A stretch of 64,000 nt of DNA from Thermoanaerobaculia bacterium (GCA_035525015.1 DATLFC010000074.1:3277-67276), one strand, 5' to 3'. Counted from the stretch's first letter, positions 42,026-58,168 are shown. A program made the numbers and translations. The notes: a model not told the origin generated them from the letters alone.

Positions 42026-42556
42026 TCAGTGCGCCTGGACACCTTCGGGATACTGCACGAACACGCCGCGGGTGAAGAGGATGTCATCGTTGAAGTTCGT
42101 CACCCCTCCGCCGGGGCTGGAGGCGTCGGCATCCCATCCCTCCGCGCCGTCAGGGGAGCCGTTCTTGCCGGCGGACCAGATCAGGTATTCGTCGGCCTTC
42201 GCCGGATCGCCCATCGGCTGATCGGCCCGGAAGCGAAACGGGTTGCCCCACCCGTCGAGACCGGGGACCACCTTGGAGTAGGTCGGAACGAGAGCGGTTC
42301 TAAGGTCGTCGTGGGAGACTGGTTCACTGCAGACGGTGATGATCGACAGCGCGCCGGCGGCGTTGTATCGGTGGAGGTCCGTCGAGCGCGCTTCCCACGC
42401 CGTGGCGATGGAACGGATGTCCGACATCGTTCGTTTCTGCCGCGCGCGGTGGAGCGCGTTGAGCAGGTTGGGAACGGCGATGGCGGCCAGGATCCCGATG
42501 ATCGCCACGACGATCAACAACTCGATGAGCGTAAACCCGCGGTCGTGCTTCCTCAT
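42026..42556 (-). CDS. Type IV pilin / pseudopilin (prepilin N-methylation domain), paralog 2
   Basis: Leader MRKHDRG followed by FTLIELLIVVAIIGILAAIA, the class III signal. C-terminus shared with paralog 1 (YPEGVQ). Confidence 0.8.
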   Translation of the reverse strand: MRKHDRGFTLIELLIVVAIIGILAAIAVPNLLNALHRARQKRTMSDIRSIATAWEARSTDLHRYNAAGALSIITVCSEPVSHDDLRTALVPTYSKVVPGLDGWGNPFRFRADQPMGDPAKADEYLIWSAGKNGSPDGAEGWDADASSPGGGVTNFNDDILFTRGVFVQYPEGVQAH

Positions 42557-42602
42557 AGTCTGGCTCCGTCTCTCTGCTTTCCGGAGCTCCGACCCCCCAT
42601 GT

Positions 42603-42630
42603 GGGGACGGGCGCCCGATGGCGCCCGTCC
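42603..42630 (-). terminator. Perfect 12-bp GC hairpin between the two pilin genes
   Basis: gggacgggcgcc-cgat-ggcgcccgtccc lies 28 nt downstream of the pilin-1 stop. It resembles an attenuating terminator after a major pilin gene. Confidence 0.55.
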
Positions 42631-42657
42631 CGCTGAACAACTAAAGGGTTCCGGAGG

Positions 42658-43152
42658 TTAGTTCTGCTGAACGCCCTCGGGGTACTGAATGAACGAACCG
42701 TTGGAGAAGATGATGTCGCTGTTGAAGTTCGTCGTTGCGCCGCCCAGGTACGTCCCGTCGGCTTTGGCGTCCTTGCCGGTCGAGTGGATCATGTAGTTCT
42801 GAGCCTGACCAGCAGCGCTGCCCCACGCCAGATCGGTGAGGAACGCGTAGGTGTTGCCCCAGCCGTCCTTCATCGGAAGGTTCTTGATGTACGTCGGCTG
42901 CAGCGCAGCCGGCAGCTGGGTGTGGACCTGCGCCGTCAACAGGGTGAGACCGGCCGCGTTGTAGCGGTTGAGGTCCGTCGCGCGCGCTTCCCACGCCGTC
43001 GCGATCGAACGCATGTCGGCCATCGTCCTCTTCTGCTTCGACCGCTGCATCGCGGTCAGAAGGTTCGGAATGGCGATTGCCGCGAGAATGCCGATGATCG
43101 CAACGACGATCAGCAGCTCAATGAGGGTGAAACCTTTCTGCTTCCTTGTCAT
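42658..43152 (-). CDS. Type IV major pilin candidate (prepilin), paralog 1
   Basis: ATG at 43152 preceded by AAGGAGGAAG-N5. Leader MTRKQKG then FTLIELLIVVAIIGILAAIA. The listed ORF extension begins at a TTG, not an ATG. Confidence 0.8.
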   Translation of the reverse strand: MTRKQKGFTLIELLIVVAIIGILAAIAIPNLLTAMQRSKQKRTMADMRSIATAWEARATDLNRYNAAGLTLLTAQVHTQLPAALQPTYIKNLPMKDGWGNTYAFLTDLAWGSAAGQAQNYMIHSTGKDAKADGTYLGGATTNFNSDIIFSNGSFIQYPEGVQQN

Positions 43153-43199
43153 GAACTTCCTCCTTTTCAAACCTCCCTAAGCGCAACCGGTGTACCAGT

Positions 43200-43214
43200 C
43201 GTCGTCGTTCGCGG
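43200..43214 (-). promoter_or_regulatory. Sigma-54-type -24/-12 element TGGTAC-N5-TTGC upstream of pilin 1
   Basis: The minus-strand sequence cTGGTACaccggTTGCg has GG-N10-GC spacing. It lies 48 nt upstream of the pilin ATG. Confidence 0.45.
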
Positions 43215-43306
43215 AAGCCCTTGTGTTGCAGATGTTTGTCGATTTTTGTCGATCGAGAATGGGCGCTGTTTTGACAGTAATTCTACCGCGCCGCTGACAG
43301 TTTTTG

Positions 43307-44728
43307 TCAGGCCGGGAAGGCCCACGTCCGGATGAGCCGGCGGGTGAATTCGAGCCCCCGGACGAAGTACGCCACCCGGAGGCGCTCGTCGGCGGCATGG
43401 ATGGACTCGCTCTGGAAAAAATCGACCGCGAAGGGATTGATTCCGTAGGCGTCGATTCCGCGCCGGCGCAGGAATCGTGAGTCGCTGGAGGAGCGACTCA
43501 GAAATTCCGTTCCGGCGGGCGCCTGAAACTCGGCCGATGCCTCGCGGGCCAGCAGCTCGTAGAACGGTGTGTTCGCCGAGGAGACCGGAACCGGCTCGGC
43601 GGCGTTGCGCACCCTCTCGATCCGCGCGCCGAACGGGGCGATGACTTCGGTAAGCCATTCGATCCGTCCGGCCGGCTCCTCGTCCGGCAGGCTGAGAAAC
43701 GTCACGGCCATCCTGAAGTCGCCTTCCGGCCGCGGCTCGATCTGCCAGACGAACACGTTGTTCTGCGTCAGCTCGCGGTAGCCGATCGGGAGCCGCCAGA
43801 ACTTTCCACGTGCGATCGTGCCGTCGATGTCGGCGAGCCATTCCCGAAACTGGATCCGCTGCGGCGCAATGTCGCGAAAAAAACGACGGACTTCCGGCAG
43901 CACGCGATGTGGCTCGGGGTCGGGGGTGAACCACGGTTCCAGGGCGATCCGTGCCTGCTGGAGTTGCCCGCGCGCCGGCGCGACGACCTCGACCGTGGTG
44001 TGGATCTTCGACCCGACTTCGATTCCGTAATACGTCACCCGCTCGGCCGACATCTCGGTGATGCCGCCTTCGTTCAGCGCGTAGCGGACGCCCTCCACGA
44101 CGTGCGGCCGGTGCTCGAGCAGCCACTTCATGCCCCAGGTCCCGCCGGCCTCTTCATCGGCCACGGCCAGGAAGACGAGATCGTGTTCCGGCTGACGCCC
44201 GCTCGCGGCGACGTCGAGGAATGCGCGGAGGAACACGATGCCGACGCTCTTCATGTCGAGTGCACCGCGGCCGTAGAGGTGATCGAGCCGGATGACTCCT
44301 TCGAACGGCGGATGCGACCACTCCGCCTCTCTGGCCGGTGCCACATCGATGTGATGCAGCAGGAGGAGACCCGATCCGTCGCGCTTCCCCTCGATACGCG
44401 CGTAGACGTTTCCGCGCCCGGGAGCGGACTCGATGACCTCGGCCTCCAGTCCCGCGGCGCGGATCAGTCCCGCCAGCCACTGCGCGGCCGGCATTTCGTT
44501 GCCGGGTGGATTCGAAGTGTCGAAGCGGATGTACTGCCGGACCAGTTCCACTTCCGGCGTGACGACGGTCGGCGTGGGGATGTAGGTGGCCTCGCGCTCG
44601 TGCTCCTCATCGAGGCGCTGCGAGTAGAGCCAGAGCCCGGCCGTCAGTGCCGCAGCGACGAGCACGACGATCGCGGCGACGATTCGTTCGTTGCGGTGCC
44701 GCCGTTTCCGTTCTTCAGGTGAGCGCAA
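43307..44728 (-). CDS. Membrane-anchored M20-family metallopeptidase (ArgE/DapE/CPG2-like)
   Basis: N-terminal transmembrane helix. M20 metal-binding motifs (LLLLHHIDVAPA, ALDMKS, AVADEEAGG, LNEGG). Confidence 0.8.
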   Translation of the reverse strand: MRSPEERKRRHRNERIVAAIVVLVAAALTAGLWLYSQRLDEEHEREATYIPTPTVVTPEVELVRQYIRFDTSNPPGNEMPAAQWLAGLIRAAGLEAEVIESAPGRGNVYARIEGKRDGSGLLLLHHIDVAPAREAEWSHPPFEGVIRLDHLYGRGALDMKSVGIVFLRAFLDVAASGRQPEHDLVFLAVADEEAGGTWGMKWLLEHRPHVVEGVRYALNEGGITEMSAERVTYYGIEVGSKIHTTVEVVAPARGQLQQARIALEPWFTPDPEPHRVLPEVRRFFRDIAPQRIQFREWLADIDGTIARGKFWRLPIGYRELTQNNVFVWQIEPRPEGDFRMAVTFLSLPDEEPAGRIEWLTEVIAPFGARIERVRNAAEPVPVSSANTPFYELLAREASAEFQAPAGTEFLSRSSSDSRFLRRRGIDAYGINPFAVDFFQSESIHAADERLRVAYFVRGLEFTRRLIRTWAFPA

Positions 44729-47057
44729 CGTTCCTCCGGAGGAGAGCGGTCAGCGCGAGGAGAGCCACCGCTGCCGCGCTGATCGCCGCGCCGAGCTCGA
44801 TCACTCGATTCCGGTAACGCATCGCCACCCGGTGTGTTCCACGCTCGACGACGATTCCCTGAAACCCGATGTTCGTGACGACCGGTGGGACCGGTCTGCC
44901 GTCGATCGAGACGCGCCAGTGGCGGTGCGGGGTGACGCTCATGACCAGAAACGACTTCCCGGCGGCCTCGACGTCGATCGACGCGCGGTTGGCGGTCTCG
45001 CGTACGGCGAGCACCTTCCCGTCAGCGGGTCTGAAGGGGCGGCCCTCGATGAAGGCAACGCGCGGGCCGTGGCGGCCGGCGACGAGATGGTGGACGAATT
45101 CCGCCCGGCCGCTGATGGGCACCAGCTGATCGGCGAAGTAATAGCGCGGGTGGTGTTCCCTCTCGACGAAGCGCACGGGGCGCGAGCTCTCGTAATCTGA
45201 CGCGCCGGCCGGCGTCTGGTTCTCCACGACTCCGACGTACCAGGCGTTGGCCATGGCCAGAAACGGCGTCAGCCAGTCCTGCCGGCCAGCGTTGCGCACG
45301 TCCCACATCGCTCTCGTGAATTCGGTCGACGGAGCGAGTGCCGTCTCGTCGTAGTCGCGTTCGAGCACCGTCTGCAGATCGTACGCGGCCGGCATCATCG
45401 GGAAAAGACCGTTCTTGACGATCCAGTACCTGGCGTCGCGCTGCGGGTATTCGAAACCGATCGTGTCCCCGCTTTGCCAGTCGGCGAGATGGAAGATTCG
45501 ATAGGCGTTCCGGTCGGGATGAAACCCATCCACCACGGGCGGCGTGGATGTGAAGAACCCCCCCGGCATCCGTGGATTCAGTTCCCGGACTACGAATCCG
45601 AGGTCGGCGATCACAAACAGAAGCGCTGCGCCGGCCCAGATCGTACGGCGGGACCGCACCGCGGTGGCGACGATCACGAAAAGAACGAGGCCGCGCCCCG
45701 CCGCGACGCTCCAGCCGGTCCAGGCGATGCCGGCCAACTGCACGGTGGCGGGATCCGCGCGGTCGAGACCGAAAAAGCCGGTCCACATCGTCAGAGAAGC
45801 CGGCCACAATCCCAGAAGCGACATGGCGGCGGCGGTGAGGGCCGTGGCAAGGGCGAATCCGGCCGCCGCGGATCGAATCGCCTTGTCTTCGTCGAGCAGC
45901 CGTTCGCAGACGCTGGCCGCGAAGACCGTGAGGACGAAGATCGCCATCAGAAGAAACTTTTCGGGATAGCGGATCTTCGTCGCCACGCCTGCGTCGTAGA
46001 GCAGGCGGAGGAGCGGTGTGTGGCTGCCGAGAGCCAGGAGCAGCGAAATCACCGTGACCGCGGCGACGAACGAGGTTCCGCGGGTGCGCCGGACGAATCC
46101 GGCGGCCGCCAGCGCGACGACGGCCAGGCCGGGGTAGATGCTGAAGAGGAACGGAGCACCCATGGGGGCGTACAGCCGGCCGCCCCAGTAGCGGATGTCG
46201 CCATCGCGCTGCACATGGCCGAGGAAGTTGGGGAAGACGAACTCGATCAGCTTCCCCCAGGGAGTGCTCCACGCCTCGACCAGCTGGAAGGGAAACGAAT
46301 GTGCGCGCGCGGAATCGCCGGCGTGATCGATCGCCGGAAGCAGCTGCACGGCACCGACCGCGAACGCCGCTCCGGCGATGAGCGCGATCCAGCCGATGTT
46401 GGCCGCCACCGCGAGGCCGCGCGCTTCCGATCGGAGGCCGCGGTAGATCGCATACATACCGAGGAGAAAGCCGGTCTGCAGGAGCGTGGTCGGCTCCGCC
46501 ACGAGGCACTGCAGTCCGAAAAAGAGTGCGGCGAGCGCGAAGTCGCGCGGCCGTCTGTCGATCAGGAACCGGCGGACGAAGAGACACGTCGCCGGCAGCC
46601 AGGCGGCGCAGAAGAGGATCGGCAGCAGGTTGATCCAGGAGAGAACGAGGCCGCCCATCCCCCAGGAGAGGGCGCCGAAGCAGGCCGCCGGTGCCCGGAT
46701 GCGCATCGAGCGCAGCAGCGCGTACATCGCCAGCAGCGCGACGTAGATGTGCACGAGGATGTGCAGCCGGTACCCGAGATCGAAGTCCGGGAGCATGAGC
46801 AGCCAGGTGAGTGGATAGAAGATCTCGTGTTCCGGATTGGCGGCCAGCGGCTGTCCGGCGTGGAAGTAGCGGTTCCAGAGGGGGAACTCGCCGCCTTCGA
46901 CGATCCGGCCGTAAATCTGCTTCGTGGGGTAGTAGTAGCGGGTCAGATCGCGCGCGGCGAAATTCGTGAGGCCCAGCAGCACGTCGCCGAAGAAGAGCGT
47001 CGGCAGCAGGAGAAGGAGGGCGACGGCGAGGAGATCGTGCCGCTGCGGGGCCCTCAT
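44715..47057 (-). CDS. YfhO-family GT-C membrane glycosyltransferase, tandem paralog 1 of 3
   Basis: 780 aa. N-terminus RDLTRYYYPTKQ...GEFPLWNRYFHAGQPLAANPEHEIFYP. 12-14 transmembrane helices and a C-terminal periplasmic domain. ATGA overlap with the upstream paralog. Confidence 0.75.
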   Translation of the reverse strand: MRAPQRHDLLAVALLLLLPTLFFGDVLLGLTNFAARDLTRYYYPTKQIYGRIVEGGEFPLWNRYFHAGQPLAANPEHEIFYPLTWLLMLPDFDLGYRLHILVHIYVALLAMYALLRSMRIRAPAACFGALSWGMGGLVLSWINLLPILFCAAWLPATCLFVRRFLIDRRPRDFALAALFFGLQCLVAEPTTLLQTGFLLGMYAIYRGLRSEARGLAVAANIGWIALIAGAAFAVGAVQLLPAIDHAGDSARAHSFPFQLVEAWSTPWGKLIEFVFPNFLGHVQRDGDIRYWGGRLYAPMGAPFLFSIYPGLAVVALAAAGFVRRTRGTSFVAAVTVISLLLALGSHTPLLRLLYDAGVATKIRYPEKFLLMAIFVLTVFAASVCERLLDEDKAIRSAAAGFALATALTAAAMSLLGLWPASLTMWTGFFGLDRADPATVQLAGIAWTGWSVAAGRGLVLFVIVATAVRSRRTIWAGAALLFVIADLGFVVRELNPRMPGGFFTSTPPVVDGFHPDRNAYRIFHLADWQSGDTIGFEYPQRDARYWIVKNGLFPMMPAAYDLQTVLERDYDETALAPSTEFTRAMWDVRNAGRQDWLTPFLAMANAWYVGVVENQTPAGASDYESSRPVRFVEREHHPRYYFADQLVPISGRAEFVHHLVAGRHGPRVAFIEGRPFRPADGKVLAVRETANRASIDVEAAGKSFLVMSVTPHRHWRVSIDGRPVPPVVTNIGFQGIVVERGTHRVAMRYRNRVIELGAAISAAAVALLALTALLRRNVALT

Positions 47058-49393
47058 TCGGCCTCAGCTCGCCTGGGCCGCCGGGACGGAACGGCCGCGG
47101 CGACCAGAAGCATCACCGCCGCCGCGGCACTCACCGGCCACACCGCCGCGATCACACCGTTTCGATACTGCATCGCCACGCGATGACGCCCGGCCGGCAC
47201 CACCACTCCCTGGTATCCGATGTTCGTCACGACCGGCCGGACCTTTCTGCCGTCGATTGTGACATGCCAGTACTTGTGGGGGGTGACGCTCATGACCAGA
47301 AACGCCCGGCCGCCCGCGAGGACATCGATGACGGCGGTATTCGGCGACTCCGAGACCGCGAGCACCTCGCCCGCAGCAGGGGCGAAGCCGCTGCCTGTCA
47401 CGAATGCGACCCGGCCGGCATGGGAGCCGGCGGTCACTTTGCGCACGAAGTCGTCGAGATCGGCGACGGGCACGATCTGGTCGGCGAAGTAGTAGCGCGG
47501 ATGGCGCCCGACCTCGACGAACTCCACCGGCTCCGCGCGCGTGTAGTCGCCGCCGACGCGATCCCGCTCCTCTTCGAACGGCCGGAACACGGCCCGATAC
47601 CGGACGTTCGACATCGCCACGAATGGACGCCACCAGTCCGGACGCCCTTCCGCTCGGACCTGCAGCATCGCGGCCGTCAGGTCGCGCGTCGGCAGAAGCG
47701 CGGTCTCGTCGTAGTCGCGCTCGAGCGCGGTCCGGATCCCCCATGCCGCCGGCATCGGAGGGAAAAGACCGTTGCGCACGACGAAGTAGGGAGCAACGCC
47801 TCCTGAGAAATACCGCCGCCCTTCGGGACCGCCGGCGCCCCAGTCGGCTTCGTGGAAGAGGCGGTAGTCATCACGATCCGGCAGCAGCGGATGCAGCGAC
47901 GGCGGTGCCTCGGTGAAAAACGCGGACGGCAGGCGCGGGTTGATCTGCTGCGCGATCCTGCCGACATCCCAGCAGACGAAGAGGAGTCCCGCCGCGAGCC
48001 AGAGATGCTTCCGCGCCATGCGCATGGTGACGAGGAGGATGAAGAGGAGAAAGCCATGGAGTGCGGCCATCATCCAGTCGCTCCAGGCCATCGCCCCGAG
48101 CGCCATGGTGAATTCGTTCGACGGGAGCCCGAACGTGCCGAGCCATACGTCGGGGCGCATCCGCACCAGAAGCGAGACCGCGGCGGCGAGGAGGGCGGTG
48201 GCCAGGGCGAAGGCAGCGGCGGCCGCGCGGATCCGTTCGTCGCCCTCCAGCGCGCCGGCGAGCATCCGCGCGGCGAGCACGCTGATCGCGAAGATCGCGA
48301 GGAGGATGAACTTCTCCGGATAGCGGACCGACGTGGCGATGCCCGCGTCGTACAGGAATCGCAGCAGCGGCGTGTGACCGCCGGCCGCCATCAGAACCGA
48401 AAGGGCGACGAGTCCGAGCACGAAACGCCCCCCGCGCGGGCGTGCGAAGAAGGCGGCGGCAGCCAGCGCCGCGGCGGCCAGCCCCGGGTAGATGCTGTAG
48501 ACGAATGGAGAGGTTCTCGGCTCGTACAGCCGTGCACCCCAGTAGGCCATCTCCACTCCGGCGCGGCCGAGCACGTTCGGGTAGACGAGCTCGAGGAGTT
48601 TCGCCCACGGCATGCTCCACGTCTGGACGAGCGCGAACTCGAACGGCCGTGCCCGGGCCGAGTCGCCGAGATGATCGGCGGCGGCCAGCAGTTGCACGGC
48701 GCCGACGGCGGCGCCGCAGAGACCGACCAGCGCGACGAGGCCGATGTTGCGAAGCGTCCGTCCGTCGCGCCATCCTCTGTACAAGCCGTACAGACCGATC
48801 AGGAGCGCGGTCTGGAGAAGCGTCGTCGGTTCGGCGACCAGACACTGGATCCCCAGGAAGAGCGCCGCCAGAGCGAAGTCGCGCCGGTTCGGCTGCAGGA
48901 GCAGACGCCTCGCGAACAGAGCCGTCAGCGGCAGCCACGCCGCGCAGAAGAGGATCGGCAGCAGGTTGACGTAAGAGAGGAAGAGGCCGCCCATTCCCCA
49001 GGAGCTGGCCCCGAACACGGCCGGCGCCGCGCGCAGCCGCATCGACCGCAGCAGGGCATACATCCCCAGCAGGGCGATGTAGATGTGGAGGAGGATGTGC
49101 AGCCGGTACCCGAGATCGTAGTCGGGGAGCATCAGCAGCCAGGTCGGCGGATAGAAGATCTCGTGCTCGGGATTGGCGGCCAGCGGCTGCCCGGCGTGGA
49201 AGTAGGGGTTCCAGAGCGGGAACTCCCCCTGCCGGACGATGTGCCGGTAGACCTGCTTGGTCGGGTAGTAGTAGCGGGTCAGATCGCGCGCCGCGAAGTT
49301 GCGGAATCCGAGCAGCACGTCGCCGAACAGCAGCGTCGGCAGAAAGAGAAGAAGAGCGACGGCGAGGAGGTCGTGCCGCCGCACCGCGTTCAT
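47054..49393 (-). CDS. YfhO-family GT-C membrane glycosyltransferase, tandem paralog 2 of 3
   Basis: Start reset to MNAVRRHDLL at 49393 (ATGA overlap with paralog 3). The Arg-rich 183-aa ORF extension is rejected. Same motif set as paralog 1. Confidence 0.75.
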   Translation of the reverse strand: MNAVRRHDLLAVALLLFLPTLLFGDVLLGFRNFAARDLTRYYYPTKQVYRHIVRQGEFPLWNPYFHAGQPLAANPEHEIFYPPTWLLMLPDYDLGYRLHILLHIYIALLGMYALLRSMRLRAAPAVFGASSWGMGGLFLSYVNLLPILFCAAWLPLTALFARRLLLQPNRRDFALAALFLGIQCLVAEPTTLLQTALLIGLYGLYRGWRDGRTLRNIGLVALVGLCGAAVGAVQLLAAADHLGDSARARPFEFALVQTWSMPWAKLLELVYPNVLGRAGVEMAYWGARLYEPRTSPFVYSIYPGLAAAALAAAAFFARPRGGRFVLGLVALSVLMAAGGHTPLLRFLYDAGIATSVRYPEKFILLAIFAISVLAARMLAGALEGDERIRAAAAAFALATALLAAAVSLLVRMRPDVWLGTFGLPSNEFTMALGAMAWSDWMMAALHGFLLFILLVTMRMARKHLWLAAGLLFVCWDVGRIAQQINPRLPSAFFTEAPPSLHPLLPDRDDYRLFHEADWGAGGPEGRRYFSGGVAPYFVVRNGLFPPMPAAWGIRTALERDYDETALLPTRDLTAAMLQVRAEGRPDWWRPFVAMSNVRYRAVFRPFEEERDRVGGDYTRAEPVEFVEVGRHPRYYFADQIVPVADLDDFVRKVTAGSHAGRVAFVTGSGFAPAAGEVLAVSESPNTAVIDVLAGGRAFLVMSVTPHKYWHVTIDGRKVRPVVTNIGYQGVVVPAGRHRVAMQYRNGVIAAVWPVSAAAAVMLLVAAAVPSRRPRRAEAE

Positions 49394-51756
49394 GCCGGTT
49401 CGGCCGCCGGGAGGGGGCGTCGTCGTGCAAAGACGGCCACGAGAATGAGGAGCGTGGCGGCGGTCGCGCTGACCGGCATCCCGACGGCGATCCTGTCGTT
49501 GCGGTACTGCATCGCCACACGATGCCGCCCCGGCGGTACCACCACGCCCTGATATCCGATGTTCGTCACGACCGGCTGGACCTTTCTGCCGTCGATTGTG
49601 ACACGCCAGTACTTGTGAGGCGTCACGCTCATGACCAGAAAGGCGCGCCCGTCGGTCTCGACGTCGATCACCGCGCTGTTCGACCGCTCGCGCAGACCGA
49701 CGACCTTCCCGTTCGCCGGCACGAACGGCTGCAGCTGCACGAACGCGACGCGCTCGCTGTAGTCTTCGCCGGCCAGCTTCTTCACGAAATCCTTCCGGTC
49801 GCGGATCTGCACGAGCTGATCGGCGAAGTAGTAGCGCGGGTAGTGCTTCCCTTCGATGAAGCGGACCGGAATCGACTTCGTGAAGTCGCCCTTCGTCCTC
49901 TTCTTCTCTTCCTCGAAGTCGCGATGGACGCCGCGGTACCACGCGTTCGACATCGCCATGAACGGCTGGTACCAGTCCGCTTTCCCGGCGCGCTTCACGT
50001 CCCAGACCGACTCGGTCAGGTCGATGGTCGGCAGCAGCGCCGTCTTGTCGTAGTCGCGCTCGATGACCGTCCGCACTCCGTGTCCGACCGGCGTCATCGG
50101 GAAAAGGCCGTTGCGCACGACCCAGTAGACCGCGGCGCCGGTTGAAAAGTATTTCCGCGCCATTTCATCGCCGCCGTACCAGTCCGCCTCATGAAAGACC
50201 CGATAGGCCGGCTGATCGGGATGGAGCGTCTGCACCGCCTCCGGCGTCCGGGTGAAGAAGCGGCGGGGCATGCGGGGGTTGAGCTCGTGCATCACCGGTC
50301 CAAGGTCGGCGCACAGGAAGATCAGTCCGGCCGTCAGCCAGACCGTCCGGAACCGCGTGCCGATGGTGAGCAGGAGTCCGACCAGAACACCGCCGCGGAC
50401 CGCGGCCACGATCCAGTCGACGCGCGAGAGCGCGATCATCCGGTTGGCGCCCGCTCCCTCGGCCAGCCCCCAGATCTTGCGAAACCCTTCGGCGTAGAGC
50501 GGTGTGAACGCGAGCGCCGCCAGGGCGGCCGCCACGACGGTCGTAGCCAGCGCGAATCCGGTGGCGGCCTCGCGCGCCCGTTCGTCGCCGGCGAGAAGCG
50601 TATCGAGAGTGTGCGCGGCGAAGACGATGATCGTGAAGACCGCGATGAGGATGAACTTCTCCGGATAGCGGACCGACGTGGCCACGCCGGCGTCATAGAG
50701 AAGACGGAGAAGCGGCGTGTGTCCGCCGAGGGCGATGACCGTGGAGAACAGGACGAGAGCGAGGACGAACCACCGTTCCCGCCCCCGGGTGAACACGCCG
50801 GCGACCGCGAGCGTGATCACCGCCAGGCCGCCGTAGATGCTGAAGAGGAACGGGGACCCCATGCCGGGATAGACGCCGCCGGCCCAGTACCACATGACGC
50901 GATCGACGGCGATGTGCCCGAGGAGGTTGGGGTAGACGAGCTCGGCGAACTTCGCCCACGGCATGCTCCACGCCTTGACGAGGGAGAAGTCGAAGGCGCG
51001 CGCGCGCGCGGAGTCGCCGACGTGATCGATGGCCGCCAGCATCTGCACGGCGCCGACGGCGAACGCGCAGGCGGAGATCGCCGCGATCCAGCCGGTGTTG
51101 GCGAGCATTCTGCCGATTCCGCCGTCCTTCCACCCGCGGTACAGGCCATACGTGCCGATGAGAAACCCGGTCTGCATGACCGTGGTCGGCTCGGCGACGA
51201 GGAACTGCATCCCCAGCGAGAGGGCGCCGAGCGCGAAGTCGCGCGGGAGCTTCCACAGCAGAAAACGACGGACGAACAGACAGGTCAGCGGCAGCCACGC
51301 CGCACAGAAGAGAATCGGCAGGAGGTTGATGTAGGAGAGGTATACGCCGCCGAGGCCGAAGCTCACCGCCCCGAAGAACGCGGCCGGCGGTGACAGGTCC
51401 ATCGAGCGCAGCAGCGCGTACATGCCGAGCAGGCCGATGTAGATGTGCACGAGGATGTGCAGGCGGAATCCGTAGTCGTAGCTCGGAAGCAGGATGAGCC
51501 AGGTGAACGGATAGAAGATCTCGTGCTCCGGGTTGGCCGCGAGCGGCTGGCCGGCGTGGAAGTAGCGGTTCCAGAGCGGCAGCTCGCCGCCGAGTACGAT
51601 CTCCCGGTAGATCTGCTTGGTCGGGTAGTAGTAGCGCGTCAGGTCGCGCATGTAGAAGTTGCCGAGCCCGGCAAGGACGTCGGCGAAGAAGAGAGTCGGA
51701 AGAAGGAGAAGAAGCGCGATCGCGAGCCGATCGGAACGGCGGGACGATCCGTTCAT
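49390..51756 (-). CDS. YfhO-family GT-C membrane glycosyltransferase, tandem paralog 3 of 3
   Basis: 788 aa with the same conserved N-terminal block. Start overlaps the GT2 stop (ATGA). Confidence 0.75.
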   Translation of the reverse strand: MNGSSRRSDRLAIALLLLLPTLFFADVLAGLGNFYMRDLTRYYYPTKQIYREIVLGGELPLWNRYFHAGQPLAANPEHEIFYPFTWLILLPSYDYGFRLHILVHIYIGLLGMYALLRSMDLSPPAAFFGAVSFGLGGVYLSYINLLPILFCAAWLPLTCLFVRRFLLWKLPRDFALGALSLGMQFLVAEPTTVMQTGFLIGTYGLYRGWKDGGIGRMLANTGWIAAISACAFAVGAVQMLAAIDHVGDSARARAFDFSLVKAWSMPWAKFAELVYPNLLGHIAVDRVMWYWAGGVYPGMGSPFLFSIYGGLAVITLAVAGVFTRGRERWFVLALVLFSTVIALGGHTPLLRLLYDAGVATSVRYPEKFILIAVFTIIVFAAHTLDTLLAGDERAREAATGFALATTVVAAALAALAFTPLYAEGFRKIWGLAEGAGANRMIALSRVDWIVAAVRGGVLVGLLLTIGTRFRTVWLTAGLIFLCADLGPVMHELNPRMPRRFFTRTPEAVQTLHPDQPAYRVFHEADWYGGDEMARKYFSTGAAVYWVVRNGLFPMTPVGHGVRTVIERDYDKTALLPTIDLTESVWDVKRAGKADWYQPFMAMSNAWYRGVHRDFEEEKKRTKGDFTKSIPVRFIEGKHYPRYYFADQLVQIRDRKDFVKKLAGEDYSERVAFVQLQPFVPANGKVVGLRERSNSAVIDVETDGRAFLVMSVTPHKYWRVTIDGRKVQPVVTNIGYQGVVVPPGRHRVAMQYRNDRIAVGMPVSATAATLLILVAVFARRRPLPAAEPA

Positions 51757-52562
51757 CGCGTCGTCGGCGCGACGTCCGGCGCGGCCGTCGAGACGGAGCG
51801 GGGGCGGAAGATCGGATGCGACCAGACGCCTTTCTTGTGCAGCTTGTACAGGACCATCGTCTTCAGGATGGCCAGACCATACCGGACCGAGCGCCAGAAT
51901 CCGATCTGCGACGCCTCGTCGAAGTAGCGGGTCTGGATCGGCACTTCGCGGATGAGCATCCTGGCGGCCACGCCCTGCGCGATGATCTCCGTGTCGAAGA
52001 CGAAATCATCCGAGTTCGCCTCGAAGTGAACGCTTTCCAGGTAACGGCGCGAATAGGCGCGGAACCCGGAGTGGTACTCGGACAGGAAGACGTAGAACGT
52101 CGCGTTCTCCACCATCGTCAGAAAGAGGTTGGCGAAGTACTTCCACTTCGGCATCCCCCCTTCGATCGGACGCCCGCCGAGCATGCGGGAGCCGAAGACG
52201 GCATCGCACTCGCCGCGCAGCAGCGGCTGGACGAGCTGGGGGATGATCTTCGGGTCGTACTGGTGATCGGGATGCACCATCACGACGATGTCGCCGGTCA
52301 TCTCGTCGAGGGCGGTCCGGTAGCAGGTCTTCTGGTTGCCGCCGTAACCCCGGTTCTGCGGGTGCACGATCGTGCGGATGCCGAGCTGCCGTGAGAGCTC
52401 GACGGTGCCGTCGCGCGAACGGTCATCGACCAGGAGAATCTCGTCGACCCAGTCCTTCGGGATGTCGTCGAACGTGGCCTGCAGAGTCTTCTCGGCGTTG
52501 TACGCCGGCAGCACGGCCACGACTTTCTTCTCCCGCAGGGGCACGGCGCGCGAGGATAACAC
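51753..52562 (-). CDS. GT2 polyprenol-phosphate sugar synthase (DPM1/CsbB-like)
   Basis: GT-A motifs (VAVLPAYNAE, LLVDDRSRDGT, the DAD-like DIVVMVHPD). GTG start 2 nt after the upstream stop. Confidence 0.85.
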   Translation of the reverse strand: MLSSRAVPLREKKVVAVLPAYNAEKTLQATFDDIPKDWVDEILLVDDRSRDGTVELSRQLGIRTIVHPQNRGYGGNQKTCYRTALDEMTGDIVVMVHPDHQYDPKIIPQLVQPLLRGECDAVFGSRMLGGRPIEGGMPKWKYFANLFLTMVENATFYVFLSEYHSGFRAYSRRYLESVHFEANSDDFVFDTEIIAQGVAARMLIREVPIQTRYFDEASQIGFWRSVRYGLAILKTMVLYKLHKKGVWSHPIFRPRSVSTAAPDVAPTTR

Positions 52563-52564
52563 GG

Positions 52565-54169
52565 TCAGAATGGCCAGCCCGGAGGCGGCATCCGCTTCTG
52601 CGCGGCGGCGATTTCCTCGAGGGGCCGCCGTGCCGGATGTCCCGGCGGAAAGGCGCGGGCGATCGCGCCGTCACGCTCGAAATGAACCTCTTCCGTCAAC
52701 ACCCTCAGATACGGTTCACTCGGCCGCCTCTGCTCCGCCACAAATCCGATCCCGAACCAGAGAAGAGCTCCGGCGGCGAGCAATGCGATCCGCCGCCGCG
52801 GTAACGCCAGGGCAACCGCCGCCGCCACGATCGCGAACGGGACGGCAATGGCGAGCGGGCGCCAGACGAAGTGAAGCAGGTTCGGCGCGACGCAGCCGTG
52901 CAGCAGCAGCGGAAGCGAGAAGGACACCCATGGGACGGCGTAGATCGTCGGGATGAACGGAAAGACGAGCGACATCACCGCCACCGCCGATGACGATGCA
53001 CCGAGGAGCAGCGCCTCGATGACCGTCTCCTTCGCGAAGGCGATCAGAAGTGCCAGGAACGGCAGGATCGGAATCAGGTACCGGGCTCCGACGGTCCGGC
53101 CGCCGAACCAGTAGGGATAGCCGGAGATCGTCAGGATGATGATCAACGGCACGGCCAGCAGCGCCACGAAAGCGGCCAGCGGCATGGCCCGCCGCGCGGC
53201 GGCAAGCCCCGCCATGGCCAGCAGGAGGACCGGTGAGATGACCAGCAGGCCTTTCCCGCCGTCGAGCAGGAGTTGCACGACATTCGTCATCGACGGCAGC
53301 CCGACCCCGAAGAGACCGGAGCGGGCTGCTTCGCGGATGTGCGTATCGGCCTCGTGCGCCGACGAGAGCGAAAAGAAACTGCCGAAGGCCAGACGGTTGT
53401 AGAGGCCGAGCACGACGGCGAACGGGATTCCTCCGGCGATCACCCGCAGCGTGCCGGCGATGCGGAGCCGCGGCAGGGCGCAGGCCATCAGGACCGCCGC
53501 GGGAATGGCATTCGGATATTCGGTCAGCACCGCCGCGCCGATCACGGCGCCGGCAGCGACGTCGATCCGCGGCGCGCGGCGCGCGATGAAGAGGAGTGCC
53601 CACGCGCCGAACAGCGTCAGCGCCGACAACGCGTGCGCGAAGAACAGGAGCCCGTACGCGAGCAAAGGCGTGGCAAACAGCATGACGGTGACTCCCGTTC
53701 GGAGCCGCTCGTCACGGCAATCGAGACGTCGCGCCACGGCCGCAACCGAGACGGCGAGAATGAGCAGCGGGATCGTCGCGCCGGCGATGCGGATGACCGT
53801 CAACGTGGCGCGCATCGTTTCGGCGGAGGGGGGGCCGAAGATGGCCCGGCCGGCGGCGTAAAACGGAAGGACCAGCAGCGCGGCACCGGGGGCCTTGTTC
53901 GAGTAGTACCGTCCGTCGCGGACCGCGAGATCGGTGATCGGGATCTTCGTGGCCTCGAGAACGGGGGTGACTTCTACCGTGCCGAAGTCGACGATGGCGA
54001 CGTCGACGGCCCAGCGACTGTACTCGTTCGGGGAGACGGCGTGCGGGAAGACGGGGATCACCAGGATCGCCAGCGCCGCGTAGAGTGCGATGGGGACTCT
54101 GGCCGGGCGGGGGATACGCTCGAAGAGCGCGACGACAGGCCGCATCCGCGGCGATTGTCTCATACGCAT
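52565..54169 (-). CDS. ArnT/PMT-like GT-C polytopic membrane protein, tandem paralog B
   Basis: 534 aa from MRMRQ. SPNEYSRWA and YSNKAPG motifs resemble GT39/GT83 loop-1 DExRYA and KPPL. The ~386-aa Arg-rich upstream part of the ORF is an out-of-frame artefact that overlaps paralog A. Confidence 0.6.
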   Translation of the reverse strand: MRMRQSPRMRPVVALFERIPRPARVPIALYAALAILVIPVFPHAVSPNEYSRWAVDVAIVDFGTVEVTPVLEATKIPITDLAVRDGRYYSNKAPGAALLVLPFYAAGRAIFGPPSAETMRATLTVIRIAGATIPLLILAVSVAAVARRLDCRDERLRTGVTVMLFATPLLAYGLLFFAHALSALTLFGAWALLFIARRAPRIDVAAGAVIGAAVLTEYPNAIPAAVLMACALPRLRIAGTLRVIAGGIPFAVVLGLYNRLAFGSFFSLSSAHEADTHIREAARSGLFGVGLPSMTNVVQLLLDGGKGLLVISPVLLLAMAGLAAARRAMPLAAFVALLAVPLIIILTISGYPYWFGGRTVGARYLIPILPFLALLIAFAKETVIEALLLGASSSAVAVMSLVFPFIPTIYAVPWVSFSLPLLLHGCVAPNLLHFVWRPLAIAVPFAIVAAAVALALPRRRIALLAAGALLWFGIGFVAEQRRPSEPYLRVLTEEVHFERDGAIARAFPPGHPARRPLEEIAAAQKRMPPPGWPF

Positions 54170-55722
54170 CAGAACGGCCACGACGAGGGAGGCGAAGCGC
54201 GCAGCGCACGGGCGAAGCTCTCCAGCCGTTCCCGCGCCGGTCCCGGCGGCAGCGTTCTGCGGATCGTCCCTTCGCGCTCGAAGTACACCTCCTGCGCGAT
54301 GAGGCGGACCGTTGGATTGGCGGGCGGTGCGAATCGGTGCGCGACGAACCCTGCGCCAAACCAGACGGCGAAGCCTGCGATGGCCGCGAGGGCCATCCGC
54401 CGCGACGGCACCGCGGCAACAACCGCGGCGGCTGCGAGGAGAAACGGGACGCCGACGGCGAGAGGCTGCCAGACGAGATGCAGGAGGTTCGGCGCCACCA
54501 GCCCTTCGCGCAGCAGCGGCCATGAGAACGAGATCCACGGCGCGTTCTGCCCCGGCGGCACGAAGGGAAATACCAGCGACACGATCGCCACCACGCCGGC
54601 GGACGCGCCGAGAAGGAACGCCTCCAGCGCGGTCCGTCTGGCGAAGGCGACGGCGAGCGCCAGAAACGGAAGAACGGGGACGACGTACCGGACCCCGACC
54701 GTCCAGCCGCCATGCCAGTTGGGATAGCCGGCCATGGTCAGAAAAAGCACCGCCGGCGCGGCGATCAGCGCGAGGAGCGCGGCGCGCGGCATCATCCTGC
54801 GCGCCGCGCCGATTCCGAATGCCGCGATCACGAGCACCGGCGAGAGAATCAGCAGACCTTTCGATGGATCGAGCAGCATCGCCAGGAGATTGGCGGGGGA
54901 TGGAAGGCCGATGCCGAAGAGTCCTGATCCGGCCAGCTCGCGGAATGCGGGATCGCGTTCGTGCGCCGAGGAGAGCGTGAAGACGCTGCCGAACGCAGCG
55001 TGGTTGTACCAGCCGAGGAGAATCGCGAAGGGCACGCCGCCCGCGAGAATGCGCAACAGGCCGCCGGCCCTGAGTCGCGGCAGTGCGCATGCGACGATGA
55101 CCGCCGCGGGAATCGCGCCCGGGTACTCGCAGAGGACGCCGAGGCCGATCAGCGCCCCGGCGGCGAGCTCGTGTCGCCGCGCGCGCGTCGAGGCGAACAG
55201 CAGAGCCCACGAGCCGAAGAGAGCGAGCGCGGAGAACGCATGCGAGAAAAAGAGAAGCCCATATGCGAAGAGCGGTGTCGCGAACAGCAGCAGCGTGATC
55301 GCGAGCCGGATCCTGCCGGCGTCGCAACCGGATCGCGCGGCGACGGCTGCCACCCAGATCGCGAGCAGAATCGCCGGAATGGTGGACGTGGCGATCCGCA
55401 TCACCGTCATCGTCGGCCGGATCGAGTCGGCCGTGGCCGGCCCGGTGAAGGGCCGGACCGCGGCATACGCCGGCGCGGCGAGCATCGAGAGTCCCGGCGC
55501 TTTGTTCGAGTAGATCCGCCCCTCCACCATGGCCGTGTCTTCGATCCGCGTCAGGTCGGTGCGCGCCAGAACGGCGGTCACTTCGATGGTCCTGTCGTCG
55601 ATCAGTGCCACCGCCAGCGCCCAGCGGCTCAGCTCATTCGGGGAGGTGAAGTGCGGAAAGACCGGCAGGACGAGAATGGCCACGATCAGGTACAGCGCCG
55701 CCGGCACCACGGCAGCTCTCAT
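54169..55722 (-). CDS. ArnT/PMT-like GT-C polytopic membrane protein, tandem paralog A
   Basis: 517 aa. SPNELSRWA, IYSNKAPG, and a C-terminus (ASPPSSWPF) shared with paralog B. TGATG overlap with paralog B and ATGA overlap with the upstream gene. Confidence 0.6.
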   Translation of the reverse strand: MRAAVVPAALYLIVAILVLPVFPHFTSPNELSRWALAVALIDDRTIEVTAVLARTDLTRIEDTAMVEGRIYSNKAPGLSMLAAPAYAAVRPFTGPATADSIRPTMTVMRIATSTIPAILLAIWVAAVAARSGCDAGRIRLAITLLLFATPLFAYGLLFFSHAFSALALFGSWALLFASTRARRHELAAGALIGLGVLCEYPGAIPAAVIVACALPRLRAGGLLRILAGGVPFAILLGWYNHAAFGSVFTLSSAHERDPAFRELAGSGLFGIGLPSPANLLAMLLDPSKGLLILSPVLVIAAFGIGAARRMMPRAALLALIAAPAVLFLTMAGYPNWHGGWTVGVRYVVPVLPFLALAVAFARRTALEAFLLGASAGVVAIVSLVFPFVPPGQNAPWISFSWPLLREGLVAPNLLHLVWQPLAVGVPFLLAAAAVVAAVPSRRMALAAIAGFAVWFGAGFVAHRFAPPANPTVRLIAQEVYFEREGTIRRTLPPGPARERLESFARALRASPPSSWPF

Positions 55723-57419
55723 GGCAGTCCTTTTTCGCGGAGCGCGGCGGCGCGCGCGCGCTCCAGCACGGCCAGTTCCCGGGCCGTCGCTTCCGCTTCC
55801 TCGATCCGCCCGCTCCGGCGGAGATAGTCGAGCTCATCGCGCAGCAGGCCGAAGCGGACATCGGCGCCGCCGGGGATCGTGGCGAAGATCCGGTTGCGCT
55901 CGATCAGATCGCGGTACCGGTCGATCCGCGACGCGTCGCGGGTTCCACACCAGAAAAGAAAAAGAGCGGCGCCGAGAAACCACGACGAAGCCAGCGCCGC
56001 GGCGCCGCGGATGGGCAGTCGCCGCAGCCCCGCCACCGCCACCGCCAGCACGGTGACGAACAGAACGATGAGGAGCGCGACCTTCGCCTGGAATGGTGCC
56101 GGTGTCGAGCCGAGCGGCACCAGCGCGGCGCCGGCCGAAGTCACCGCGCTCCATTGCGCCGCCATCAGGTCCGCCGGCAGGACGTACCGCGACAGGTCGA
56201 GCATCGAGCCGCGCGCAGCGAGAAACAGCGCCATCGTCCACGCCGACGGGACCGCGACGACGACCGCCCGCCACGGCGGGCTCAGAGCGCGCAGCAGCGC
56301 CGCCGCTCCGATCAGAAAGACGACGATGCAGCTGTCGAAGCGCCGCTGCCCGAACGAGAGCGCGCCCCAGAAAGAGCGCTCCAGCGTGGCGTTGATGATC
56401 CACTGCGAAGCGAACAGCACCAGCCCCGCCACGGCCAGCCTCCGGTCATGGCGCAGGAGGAGCAGAAGGCCGGCCACGCCGGCCGCGGCGAACGGCGTCC
56501 AGGTGAAGAGTCCGTGGTACCACGACAGCAGCGGCTCCCACGCCCACACTCTCTGAAACGCGGCGAACGGAGTGGCGGAGCCGCCTCCCGTCAGAAAACC
56601 GAGCGGGGAGCCGTAAAGGAACCAGCTCACCACGATCTGCGGCAGCGCGCCGGCGGCCATCCCGCCCGCGTACCACGGCAGATGACGGCGCGACACCGAC
56701 GCCACGATCAGCGGCACCGCCGCGAGCGGGGCGTTCTGGGGACGGACGGCGAATGCGAATCCGACCGCCAGGCCGGCCAGCAGCACCATGGCCGGCTCGC
56801 CACGCCGCCGCAGTGCGATCGCCGCCGCGAAGACGAGCGCCGAGCTGCACGCCGAGATCGCATGCGCCATCGTCGCGTGCGCGAGCGAATACCACATCAG
56901 TGTGGTGCCGAACCAGGTGCCGATCGCGGCGAGCGCGGCGGGACCGGCGCCGCTCACCGGCCGCGCGATGGCGTATCCGAGAAGAAGCGTGCCCAGTCCG
57001 GCGAACGCGGTCGTGACGATGACGCCGATGTTGTAGGGAAGAGAGAAGCCGTTTCGTGGAAACTCCAGGAGCGGCTGGAGCGCATCGGCGACGATGAATG
57101 CCGGGAACCACGCCAGCGCGGCGCCGACGGTCCAGTGGTTCCCGAGGTGGGCCGTGCTCGTGACGTCCTTGTGCTGGATGATGCCGCCGGCGATCATCCC
57201 CAGCTCCTGCCACTCGTCGAAAAAGAGGAGATCGCGGTCGAGCCAGGCCGAGGGGAGATAGACCAGGTACCCGGCCCCGTCCGGCAGCAGCAGACCTGGC
57301 TGGAGCCAGAGAATGGTGGTGGCGAGCCAGACTCCGGCGATCGCTAGGAACGGGACGAGGTGTCGGCGGCCAGCGCCTGTCGCAGGGCTTCGCTCACCGG
57401 GACTCCCGCTCGCTCGCAT
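55719..57419 (-). CDS. GT-C-like polytopic membrane protein with loop DE motif (FFDEWQELG)
   Basis: About 12 transmembrane helices. Acidic first-loop motif. C-terminal soluble helical tail. Start is uncertain (57353-57419) because of overlap with the upstream gene. Confidence 0.5.
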   Translation of the reverse strand: MRASGSPGERSPATGAGRRHLVPFLAIAGVWLATTILWLQPGLLLPDGAGYLVYLPSAWLDRDLLFFDEWQELGMIAGGIIQHKDVTSTAHLGNHWTVGAALAWFPAFIVADALQPLLEFPRNGFSLPYNIGVIVTTAFAGLGTLLLGYAIARPVSGAGPAALAAIGTWFGTTLMWYSLAHATMAHAISACSSALVFAAAIALRRRGEPAMVLLAGLAVGFAFAVRPQNAPLAAVPLIVASVSRRHLPWYAGGMAAGALPQIVVSWFLYGSPLGFLTGGGSATPFAAFQRVWAWEPLLSWYHGLFTWTPFAAAGVAGLLLLLRHDRRLAVAGLVLFASQWIINATLERSFWGALSFGQRRFDSCIVVFLIGAAALLRALSPPWRAVVVAVPSAWTMALFLAARGSMLDLSRYVLPADLMAAQWSAVTSAGAALVPLGSTPAPFQAKVALLIVLFVTVLAVAVAGLRRLPIRGAAALASSWFLGAALFLFWCGTRDASRIDRYRDLIERNRIFATIPGGADVRFGLLRDELDYLRRSGRIEEAEATARELAVLERARAAALREKGLP

Positions 57420-58047
57420 GCACCGGCGATGGTCTCATACGCCTCCCGGCGGCGCCCTTTCCGCAGCAGGTCGAGCACTCCTGCGGCGATGATCCCGTCG
57501 AAGAACCGCTTGCGGTCGATGTCGGTGGGGAGCGTTTTCTTCGCGCCGGCGCGCAGGGTGCCGAGGAGCTCGTTGATCTCGTCGTACTCGGGACCGACGA
57601 ACTTCTGGAGGTCTTCCTTGAGCGTGCGGGCCAGAGCGGGAGACTTGCCGCCGGTGGAGACGGCGATCTGGATCGTGCCGCGCTCCACGATGGCCGGGAC
57701 GATGAACTCGCAGAGATGCGTCACGTCGACGACGTTGACGGGGATCTTCCTGCGGCGGCAGTCGCGGGCCACGCGGCCGTTCACGCAGGCGTCGTCGGTG
57801 GAGGCGATGACGATCGAGGCTCCCTCCAGATCGCCCTCTTCGTACGCCTTGCGGCGGATCTGCAGGGCTCCGTCGCGAGCCCAGGCCTCGATCTCCGCGG
57901 TGAGCTCGGGCGAGACGATGGTCACCCGCGCGCCGTACTTCATCATCGTTTCCGCCTTGCGGGCGCAGACGTTCCCGCCGCCGATGATCACGACGTGGCG
58001 ATCCTCGATGTCGAGGTAGATGGGGTAGTAGGGATATTTCTTTTTCA
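57344..58047 (-). CDS. Precorrin-2 dehydrogenase / sirohydrochlorin ferrochelatase (siroheme synthase N-domain, SirC/Met8-like)
   Basis: NAD-binding VVIIGGGNVCARK and the CysG N-domain pattern. GTG start at 58047 is chosen because the first 39 codons of the listed ORF are a translation of the palindrome. Confidence 0.6.
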
Positions 58048-58050
58048 CGA

Positions 58051-58164
58051 CTGGGGTCAGGCCTTCCCTTTTACCTTTCTCTACCGGCTGTAGAGTATCG
58101 TGACACAGTCGGCGGCGTTGCTCTACAGCGGGTAGAGAAAGGTAAAAGGGAAGGCCTGACCCCA
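58051..58164. repeat. Large near-perfect inverted repeat (~44-bp arms, ~25-nt spacer)
   Basis: tggggtcaggccttcccttttacctttctctaccggctgtagag ... ctctacagcgggtagagaaaggtaaaagggaaggcctgacccca, with one mismatch. It fills the glyA-to-sirC intergenic space. Confidence 0.8.
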
Positions 58165-58168
58165 ATCG

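Follow-up and report, generated by a model that had tools for sequence, protein, structure and literature searches.

Why a bacterium would string six predicted membrane transferases together with a single predicted maker of a lipid-linked sugar, and on which molecule such enzymes would act, are the questions raised by a locus of an uncultured, soil-type Thermoanaerobaculia bacterium (Acidobacteriota), known from a metagenome-assembled genome (MAG). The stretch analysed, hereafter the window, comprises 64,000 nucleotides (nt) (GCA_035525015.1, DATLFC010000074.1:3277-67276) with a G+C content of about 66%, and the gene set of the region corresponds, at 100% protein identity, to NCBI locus tags VM779_04085 to VM779_04105. 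Seven minus-strand genes, named here in their order of transcription G1, G2, G3, GT2, Y5, Y6 and Y7, are followed by a gene for a hydrolase of the M20 family. We consider the locus a likely multi-component transmembrane glycosylation operon, which uses a polyprenol-phosphate-linked sugar to modify an acceptor in the cell envelope. By sequence comparison, the seven-gene array reads as a lineage-specific tandem expansion of a core consisting of a gene of the G2/G3 type (the B family), the GT2 gene, a YfhO-like gene (the Y family) and M20. This core recurs in other Thermoanaerobaculia and, in rearranged form, in Holophagales.

Gene order and junctions

An earlier note on this DNA had described the seven genes between 44715 and 57419 as chained by ATGA or TGATG stop/start overlaps or, at one point, by a 2-nt gap, and direct reading of the junctions confirms this. 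G1 and G2 overlap by 4 nt at an ATGA and G2 and G3 by 1 nt at a TGATG, the gap of 2 nt separates G3 from GT2, whose start codon is GTG, and the GT2/Y5, Y5/Y6 and Y6/Y7 junctions are each formed by an ATGA. Two NCBI gene models differ slightly from this picture: the annotated start of G3 is the third ATG, at 54145, leaving a 23-nt gap after G2, and Y6 is given 776 instead of 779 amino acids (aa), which would fit a GTG at 49384.

The chain extends beyond the seven genes at both ends. The M20 gene, placed by the earlier note 14 nt away from Y7, instead overlaps the Y7 stop by 14 nt from its best start, a TTG at 44728 preceded 5 nt upstream by the Shine-Dalgarno sequence GGAGG; since orthologues also align from residues 1-5, M20 is the eighth translationally coupled gene. 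At the other end, the sole start codon of G1 ahead of its first transmembrane helix, ATG 57419, is contained in the preceding gene, which resembles the N-terminal part of CysG and whose 3' end overlaps G1 by 76 nt. This overlap (57344-57419) is out of frame, and the counterpart genes of related loci lie about 40 nt apart. Because start/stop overlaps of 4 nt are frequent in a genome of 66% G+C, the overlaps by themselves are ordinary, and it is the gene content that is notable. A scan of 41.9-59.7 kb for sigma-70 promoters returned no matches, and the terminator-like sites found over the same interval were all intragenic and near chance expectation.

Table 1. Genes of the cluster and of its surroundings, with positions counted from the first letter of the window.
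Gene	Position	Strand	Description
G1	55719-57419	-	566 aa
G2	54169-55722	-	517 aa
G3	52565-54169	-	534 aa (526 aa with start at 54145)
GT2	51753-52562	-	269 aa
Y5	49390-51756	-	788 aa
Y6	47054-49393	-	779 aa
Y7	44715-47057	-	780 aa
M20	43307-44728	-	metallohydrolase, aminoacylase-1 / DapE / ArgE type
CysG-N-terminal-like gene	57344-58165	-	upstream neighbour
X625	59494-61371	+	625 aa, distant YfhO-like paralogue
pilA1	42658-43170	-	prepilin, type IV pilin / GspG-like
second prepilin gene	42026-42640	-	type IV pilin / GspG-like

The predicted donor maker, transferases and hydrolase

GT2 is predicted from its sequence to be a polyprenol-phosphate sugar synthase and hence the donor maker of the system. 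It matches PF00535 (E 2e-22), and its best solved relative is the dolichol-phosphate mannose synthase of P. furiosus (PfDPMS, 5mlz; E 6e-11), which bears out its earlier description as DPM1-like. Its strongest matches among NCBIfam models are AglJ, PpgS and Dol-P-hexose transferase; these, like PgfS and ArnC, which are matched as well, are polyprenol-phosphate enzymes, albeit all at sub-equivalog level: AglJ is matched at 2.6e-24 with 86 bits, below its cut-off of 325 bits, and PpgS at 6e-15 with 55 bits, below its cut-off of 370 bits. Weak matches extend to GpgS and further GT2 models. In the alignment with DPMS, the stretch 'HPDHQYD' (residues about 95-101) falls on 'DADLQH', with the D-x-Q metal-binding motif aligned and SGF kept. 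The canonical counterpart of the HPD site is Asp-x-Asp, as in the 'DADLQH' of DPMS, GtrB and ArnC, and the His-for-Asp replacement is invariant in 52 orthologues, 45 from Thermoanaerobaculia and seven from Holophagales. The protein thus groups with the polyprenol-phosphate sugar synthases of the GT2 family (DPMS/DPM1, GtrB, CsbB, ArnC, AglJ and PpgS), with a variant metal site. A hydropathy scan of its 269 residues found no transmembrane segment, and the C-terminal membrane-anchoring helices typical of GtrB, CsbB and ArnC are missing. Human DPM1 and mycobacterial PpgS depend on partner membrane proteins, and GT2, having no helix, resembles both. With 80-90% identity across Thermoanaerobaculia, it surpasses every other gene of the cluster in conservation.

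The three membrane proteins encoded ahead of GT2 belong to two related families. G2 and G3 are paralogues with 58% identity (blastp, E 1e-171) and constitute the B family, whose profile is homologous to that of the G1 family with an hhalign probability of 95.7%. AlphaFold, run on alignments of 74-76 sequences, gave models of very high confidence, with a predicted local distance difference test (pLDDT) score of 93.6 for G1 and 95.0 for G3, and their top structural matches are ArnT and PMT; ALG12, ALG9, PimE and AftB are also among the structural matches of G1 and the B family. G1-G3 have the polytopic core of the GT-C superfamily and its conserved helix arrangement, as seen in the models of G1 and G3, and G1, an optional member of the cluster, adds a short C-terminal helical domain to its ArnT/PMT-like fold. 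The designation of G1-G3 as ArnT/PMT-like therefore holds for the fold. It does not extend to the sequence families of that name, as none of the three has a Pfam match even at E<=10, PMT (PF02366) and PMT_2 (PF13231) included, and a phmmer search of PDB sequences with G1 and G3 found no relative. Among the matches listed, about one-sixth of G1 homologues and one B homologue carry a precomputed PF13231 match, so the relationship to PMT_2 is a distant one.

The B family is large, with 12,378 representatives of clusters at 50% identity matching its profile at E<=1e-3. The only curated model touched by G2 (weakly, 2e-5), by G3 and by all 10 distant B members sampled is NF047440, at E values of about 1e-5 to 1e-15; the scores of 22-55 bits lie far under the cut-off of 200, and the B family is accordingly not a member. 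The membrane domain of the 10 sampled members has no Pfam match, and three of them (P0414, P0424 and P0462) carry C-terminal TPR repeats, an architecture that recalls protein-directed GT-C enzymes such as TfpW.

The YfhO-like proteins Y5, Y6 and Y7 share 59-60% identity with one another. Of the three, described earlier as YfhO paralogs, Y5 (31.9 bits) and Y7 (40.4 bits) exceed the cut-off of 28.5 bits for PF09586 (YfhO), and Y6 (21.4 bits) falls below it; the best match is limited to profile positions 761-835 of 835, the C-terminal 75 residues or so, and at E<=10 another stretch matches weakly. Y7 bears the NCBI name 'YfhO family protein', and in NCBIfam Y5 and Y7 match only the C-terminal ends of PgfM1/PgfM2, at 15-19 bits against cut-offs of 1400-1500. 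Neither Y7 (phmmer) nor the Y-family profile matched a PDB entry. Weak similarity links this profile to PTPS_related, DUF2079 and DUF6044, which we take to be GT-C-related families of membrane proteins. Topology prediction gives Y5 about 13 transmembrane helices, a periplasmic domain of about 265 aa and a C-terminal transmembrane helix. A GT-C fold may be presumed for Y5-Y7 from the Pfam match and from the literature, which places YfhO among the GT-C enzymes (PMC8035078).

All three families share a feature of GT-C enzymes, an invariant acidic residue 8-13 residues past the first transmembrane helix (G1 D47, B E49 and Y D37). Just after this helix, D47 and D63 are invariant in 76 G1 sequences, E49 and D80 in 74 B sequences and R36-D37 in 65 Y sequences including distant paralogues, and a catalytic role of the acidic residues of this first loop seems probable. 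The residues K92, R108, R120, R127 and R363 are invariant in the B family as well. In the Y family, the motif RYPEK is likewise invariant, even in paralogues of only 26-29% identity, and identity among the Y paralogues is 75-84% over the first transmembrane helix and first loop compared with 55-60% elsewhere. A neighbour-joining tree groups Y5 with the main orthologues, among them P0137 and P0147, to which it is 77-78% identical. Y6 and Y7 stand on long accessory branches shared with extra copies of another MAG, in the case of Y6 those of locus L045. On this phylogenetic placement, Y5 appears as the core orthologue and Y6 and Y7 as accessory paralogues. A recent duplication or an assembly artefact was considered and rejected, as identity among the Y and between the G2/G3 paralogues is no more than 58-60% and counterparts of Y6 and Y7 occur in other MAGs.

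M20 matches PF01546 (1e-23), its best solved relative being aminoacylase-1 (3e-18). It has one N-terminal transmembrane helix, and its catalytic domain is predicted to be periplasmic and membrane-anchored. The hydrolase probably acts on the same substrate or product as the glycosylation system.

Recurrence of the core in two classes

About 100 related loci were compared overall; 80 of these came from species-representative genomes and were collected with the G2/G3 family as probe, all window proteins then being mapped onto them. In Thermoanaerobaculia the cluster is set in a backbone that reads accD, folC, X625(-), glyA, cysG-like, [G1], B, GT2, Y, M20, pilin, pilin, Zn-ribbon(-), pilT(-) and ruvX, with G1 optional. 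Twenty clusters from other species are complete from the cysG-like gene, present ahead of all 20, to M20. Nineteen of them have one B gene and the remaining one has two, 16 have a single Y gene, three have two and one has three, and G1 is found in only two. Among the complete clusters compared, the window thus holds the most expanded version.

Several observations tie the members of the core to one another. By hand count, a GT2 orthologue adjoins a B-family gene in 45 of the 80 loci. M20 comes directly after a YfhO-like gene in 23 of 25 Thermoanaerobaculia loci, and the same holds for L083, an acidobacterial contig with the order GT2 - Y - M20 and no B gene at all, and for those Holophagales-type loci (L081/L082/L084 and L086-L097) whose contigs reach that far, 13 of 15. 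The Holophagales loci are set differently, in a larger supercluster of envelope-glycan genes that comprises Wzt, ArnT-like and ArnC-like genes, an ArnA-like gene split in two, a deacetylase gene, STT3 and PMT_2, yet the GT2 orthologue (67-94% identical) still adjoins a B gene and a distant Y-like gene. Two further Y-like genes, then M20, complete the arrangement there, and directly upstream of these Y-like genes lies a GT2-methyltransferase fusion that keeps the canonical DADLEYDP. Beyond M20, a penicillin amidase gene follows in L086 and L097, the two Holophagales-type loci examined that far. The synteny comparison suggested by the earlier note hence supports a lasting association of GT2 with B, Y and M20, and it does not do the same for the pilin genes that follow the cluster in the window.

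In L008, L010-L018, L023, L024, L027, L042 and others, an inverted GT2 orthologue (about 85% identity) lies between B and Y, and a local inversion of this gene is evidently tolerated.

Proposed mechanism and acceptor, and competing explanations

The natural reading of one GT2 gene accompanied by several YfhO-like and other GT-C genes is that of one lipid-linked-sugar synthase feeding several transferases. Pairs of GT-A and GT-C genes that use a C55-P-linked sugar (P, phosphate) are an established type of system, with YfhO as a GT-C member (PMC8035078). By analogy with its family, GT2 would work at the cytoplasmic face of the inner membrane and load a single sugar, taken from a nucleotide sugar, onto polyprenol phosphate, and the lipid-linked sugar would then be flipped to the other face by a flippase encoded outside the window. 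On the periplasmic face, six GT-C-type transferases would use it, namely the compact ArnT/PMT-fold enzymes G1, G2 and G3, and Y5, Y6 and Y7, each with a periplasmic domain of about 265 aa. That the paralogues share a strongly conserved, presumably catalytic N-terminal loop and diverge elsewhere would fit a single donor used for different acceptor sites or linkages.

A number of findings weigh against this reading. Genes for the GT-A and GT-C components lie side by side, but no GtrA-, SMR-, ArnE/F- or Wzx-type flippase was found among the scanned called open reading frames (ORFs) of the 64-kb window, although in known systems this component is frequently encoded elsewhere, as is GtcA (PMC8035078). 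The synthase itself has no membrane anchor and carries His-Pro-Asp in place of Asp-x-Asp. The GT2 gene lies on the opposite strand in 13 of the 20 complete clusters of other species, which means that co-translation is not essential to the association, and some 29 of the 80 genes of the B family stand as orphans, more than 10 kb from any GT2 gene. The Y profile has no significant similarity to the G1 and B profiles (hhalign probability <3%), and the GT-C fold of Y5-Y7, unlike that of G1 and G3, is presumed from a YfhO match confined at Pfam level to the C-terminal end. Finally, the synteny may in part be a mere reflection of the conserved backbone.

As for the acceptor, an envelope glycolipid or glycan, such as the lipid A or core of lipopolysaccharide (LPS), O-antigen or exopolysaccharide, is weakly favoured over the pilins, because G1 and the B family share the compact build of ArnT and the ALG enzymes, in contrast to the Y proteins with their periplasmic domain, and because the Holophagales cluster is set in an LPS/Arn neighbourhood. 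The earlier note had raised the possibility that the cluster modifies pilins. The targets would be the products of the two type IV pilin or GspG-like pseudopilin genes 1.5 kb downstream, which would be O-glycosylated as by TfpW, a GT-C enzyme that is encoded beside pilA and glycosylates the pilin (bioRxiv 10.1101/2020.04.19.049825). Two prepilin genes do indeed lie 3' of M20 in all 19 Thermoanaerobaculia loci that reach that far, and the TPR repeats of some distant B-family relatives have their equivalent in TfpW. The adjacency, however, sits inside the long housekeeping backbone from accD, folC and glyA to pilT and ruvX and fails where this backbone is absent, so it is inseparable from the conservation of the backbone as a whole: in the 15 Holophagales-type loci, which keep GT2, YfhO-like genes and M20 together, a motif search that recovered both pilins of the window found no prepilin motif, reaching up to 8.5 kb past M20 where the contig allows. 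A GT-C gene linked to a pilin gene across genomes, as in TfpW-type systems, is not what is seen here; the pilin genes border M20 and not a GT-C gene, and the order is the opposite of pilA-tfpW.

The pilins also look like a separate, sigma-54-dependent transcription unit. The likely start of pilA1 is ATG 43152 and not TTG 43170, giving the leader MTRKQKG|FTLIE, and it is preceded by an A/T-rich spacer of 136 nt (43171-43306) with repeated GACAAA words. About 30 nt upstream of this ATG, the spacer contains a sigma-54-type -24/-12 element, TGGTACACCGGTTGC (43183-43197, minus strand; TGGTAC-N5-TTGC), and such an element, also present in nine of 22 related loci, is the basis for regarding the pilins as a unit with a promoter of their own. 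Glycosylation of the pilins by the cluster is, on this evidence, not supported, and we regard it as very improbable. A gene for a sigma-54 activator is found at 10542-12068.

The main rival to a set of transferases with separate targets is a glycan assembly line, in which the six GT-C enzymes would act in turn with one lipid-linked monosaccharide and build or lengthen a single homoglycan or branched glycan on a lipid or polymeric primer, as do mycobacterial PimE, MptA, MptB and MptC with polyprenol-P-mannose, or Emb and Aft with decaprenyl-P-arabinose. It would account for one donor-making GT2 serving three different GT-C families, all encoded in the same direction in one coupled operon, and for the presence among the structural matches of G1 and the B family of ALG12, ALG9, PimE and AftB, enzymes that elongate lipid-linked glycans; the YfhO-like periplasmic domain is also of a kind suited to polymer holding (PMC8035078). 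Most relatives, however, make do with one B and one Y gene, and L083 with a Y gene only, so the extra copies are dispensable rather than obligatory steps, and the operon includes no genes for primer synthesis or export. We therefore hold the assembly line to be unlikely. A looser connection is conceivable as well, the GT-C enzymes using donors made elsewhere, for example undecaprenyl-PP-linked oligosaccharides (PP, diphosphate), and GT2 serving one of them or none. The frequent inversion of GT2, the many orphans of the B family and the second, methyltransferase-fused GT2 directly upstream of the Holophagales YfhO-like genes would all agree with mere co-location. Such a coincidence is nonetheless hard to reconcile with the conservation of GT2, kept beside B and/or Y in two classes despite rearrangement, or with the chaining of the seven window genes and M20, nearly all by overlaps, and seems to us highly unlikely.

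A more far-reaching version of the glycosylation reading, which we advance as a speculation with the odds clearly against it, is that a GT2 with HPD and no helix, a YfhO-like GT-C and a membrane-anchored periplasmic M20 form a triad that is a previously undescribed envelope-modification pathway, the transferred sugar or the acceptor being processed by a periplasmic deacylase. By analogy with the logic of ArnD or of the PpgS/Rv3779 galactosamine pathway, a transferred N-acetylhexosamine might, for example, be deacetylated to a cationic hexosamine. If this were true, the tandem G1, B and Y paralogues would spread the modification over several acceptor sites.

Comparison with known systems helps to delimit the glycosylation operon favoured here. 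CsbB/GtcA/YfhO, which adds N-acetylglucosamine to lipoteichoic and wall teichoic acids in Bacillus, Staphylococcus and Listeria, combines, in an arrangement resembling the one here, a GT2 maker of a C55-P-linked sugar with an adjacent large GT-C of the YfhO family that transfers this sugar on the outer side of the membrane (PMC8035078, PMC5836110). CsbB, however, has two C-terminal transmembrane helices that GT2 lacks, and a single GT-C stands there against three YfhO-like and three ArnT-fold enzymes here, where the YfhO resemblance is confined at Pfam level to the C-terminal end, no GtrA-type flippase lies nearby and an M20 hydrolase is coupled. Teichoic acids, moreover, are not expected in a diderm acidobacterium. 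With the ArnC/ArnT system for lipid A aminoarabinose (with ArnD and ArnE/F), the differences lie in the missing PMT/PMT_2 match of G1-G3, the lack of sugar-nucleotide modification genes in the operon, the similarity of GT2 to ArnC (E 2.5e-7), which is weaker than its similarity to DPMS and AglJ, and the presence of several transferases per donor maker.

The best functional analogy for one donor serving several paralogous GT-C enzymes is offered by RgtE and RgtA/B/C/D/F of Rhizobium, in which one GT2 makes a polyprenol-P-linked sugar that several paralogous ArnT-like GT-Cs attach at various positions of a single envelope glycolipid. A tandem rgtABC arrangement is known in Rhizobium. The likeness is a functional one, and three different GT-C families are involved here; the roles of RgtD/E/F in galacturonosyl transfer to LPS core and lipid A are taken as cited in PMC7663294. 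The Pgf system of S. mutans, which O-glycosylates adhesins, is described (bioRxiv 10.1101/2022.10.10.511621) as comprising the GT2 PgfS, the YfhO-like PgfM1 and PgfM2 and the epimerase PgfE. It shares with the window the combination of one GT2 and more than one YfhO-like transferase per operon, and it differs in its epimerase, absent here, and in its acceptors, which are Gram-positive surface adhesins. LA_3751/LA_3752 of Leptospira (NF047440), putative glycosyltransferases, are, by model name, neighbouring loci, and the Leptospira family is itself uncharacterised. With TfpW, the pilin arabinosyltransferase of Pseudomonas aeruginosa group IV strains, the window shares a GT-C near pilin genes and, by prediction, a polyprenol-P-sugar donor, but tfpW lies directly 3' of pilA and its product has a periplasmic TPR domain, whereas M20 and a separate promoter intervene here and the linkage is lost in Holophagales. 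A literature search found nothing on this locus, these families or YfhO in Acidobacteria, nor on LA_3751. What distinguishes the locus is the combination of three GT-C families, six transferases behind one synthase, an HPD synthase with no helix, no flippase found locally, a coupled M20 and a GT-C family with no curated model.

Outside the operon, the window contains three further polytopic GT-C-like genes, so that nine are counted (G1, G2, G3, Y5, Y6, Y7, X625, 33415-35214(+) and about 35208-36647(+)) instead of the ten put forward before. X625 is 29% identical to Y5 across its N-terminal 340 residues (E 1.5e-26) and shares the RD...YP...GQP...NP and RYPEK motifs; it has no Pfam or NCBIfam match, is divergent from glyA and upstream of it, and is found at the same place in the majority of related loci. 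It may take part in the pathway of the operon. The tandem pair at 33415-36647 shares a first-loop motif, 'WDWDE...HPHPPGFPLF', and has weak TMEM260-like, ALG10-like and NF047440 matches, the first member possessing a soluble C-terminal domain of about 200 aa; from these features the two are probably further GT-C enzymes. The segment 22136-24945, also considered as a tandem GT-C pair, was rejected, as it encodes TldD/PmbA peptidases. The CysG-N-like neighbour is of the precorrin-2 dehydrogenase / sirohydrochlorin ferrochelatase type (PF13241, 2.9e-33; TIGR01470, 9e-56). Among other genes of the window are those for a bacterial type IB topoisomerase with Topoisom_I and Top1B_N_bact domains (32333-33382, minus strand), a protein of 661 aa whose N-terminal Ser/Thr-kinase-like domain is joined by a Pro/Gln-rich linker to a C-terminal TonB_C domain (36648-38633, minus strand), and a PAP2_3-family membrane phosphatase with six predicted transmembrane segments (16380-17402, plus strand), not adjacent to the operon and possibly a polyprenol-PP or lipid A phosphatase.

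Understanding of how such glycosylation systems work is left unchanged by this locus; its significance lies elsewhere. Acidobacteriota are abundant in soils and sediments and, to our knowledge, their envelope biochemistry is almost unknown. The comparison reveals in two of their classes a conserved, probably ancestral module of GT2, GT-C, YfhO-like and M20 genes, which can be amplified by tandem duplication, and brings to light in the G2/G3 type a large GT-C family with neither a Pfam model nor a studied member. The GT2 gene offers a single genetic handle on the attachments of the acidobacterial envelope, and its loss should abolish all modifications that depend on it.

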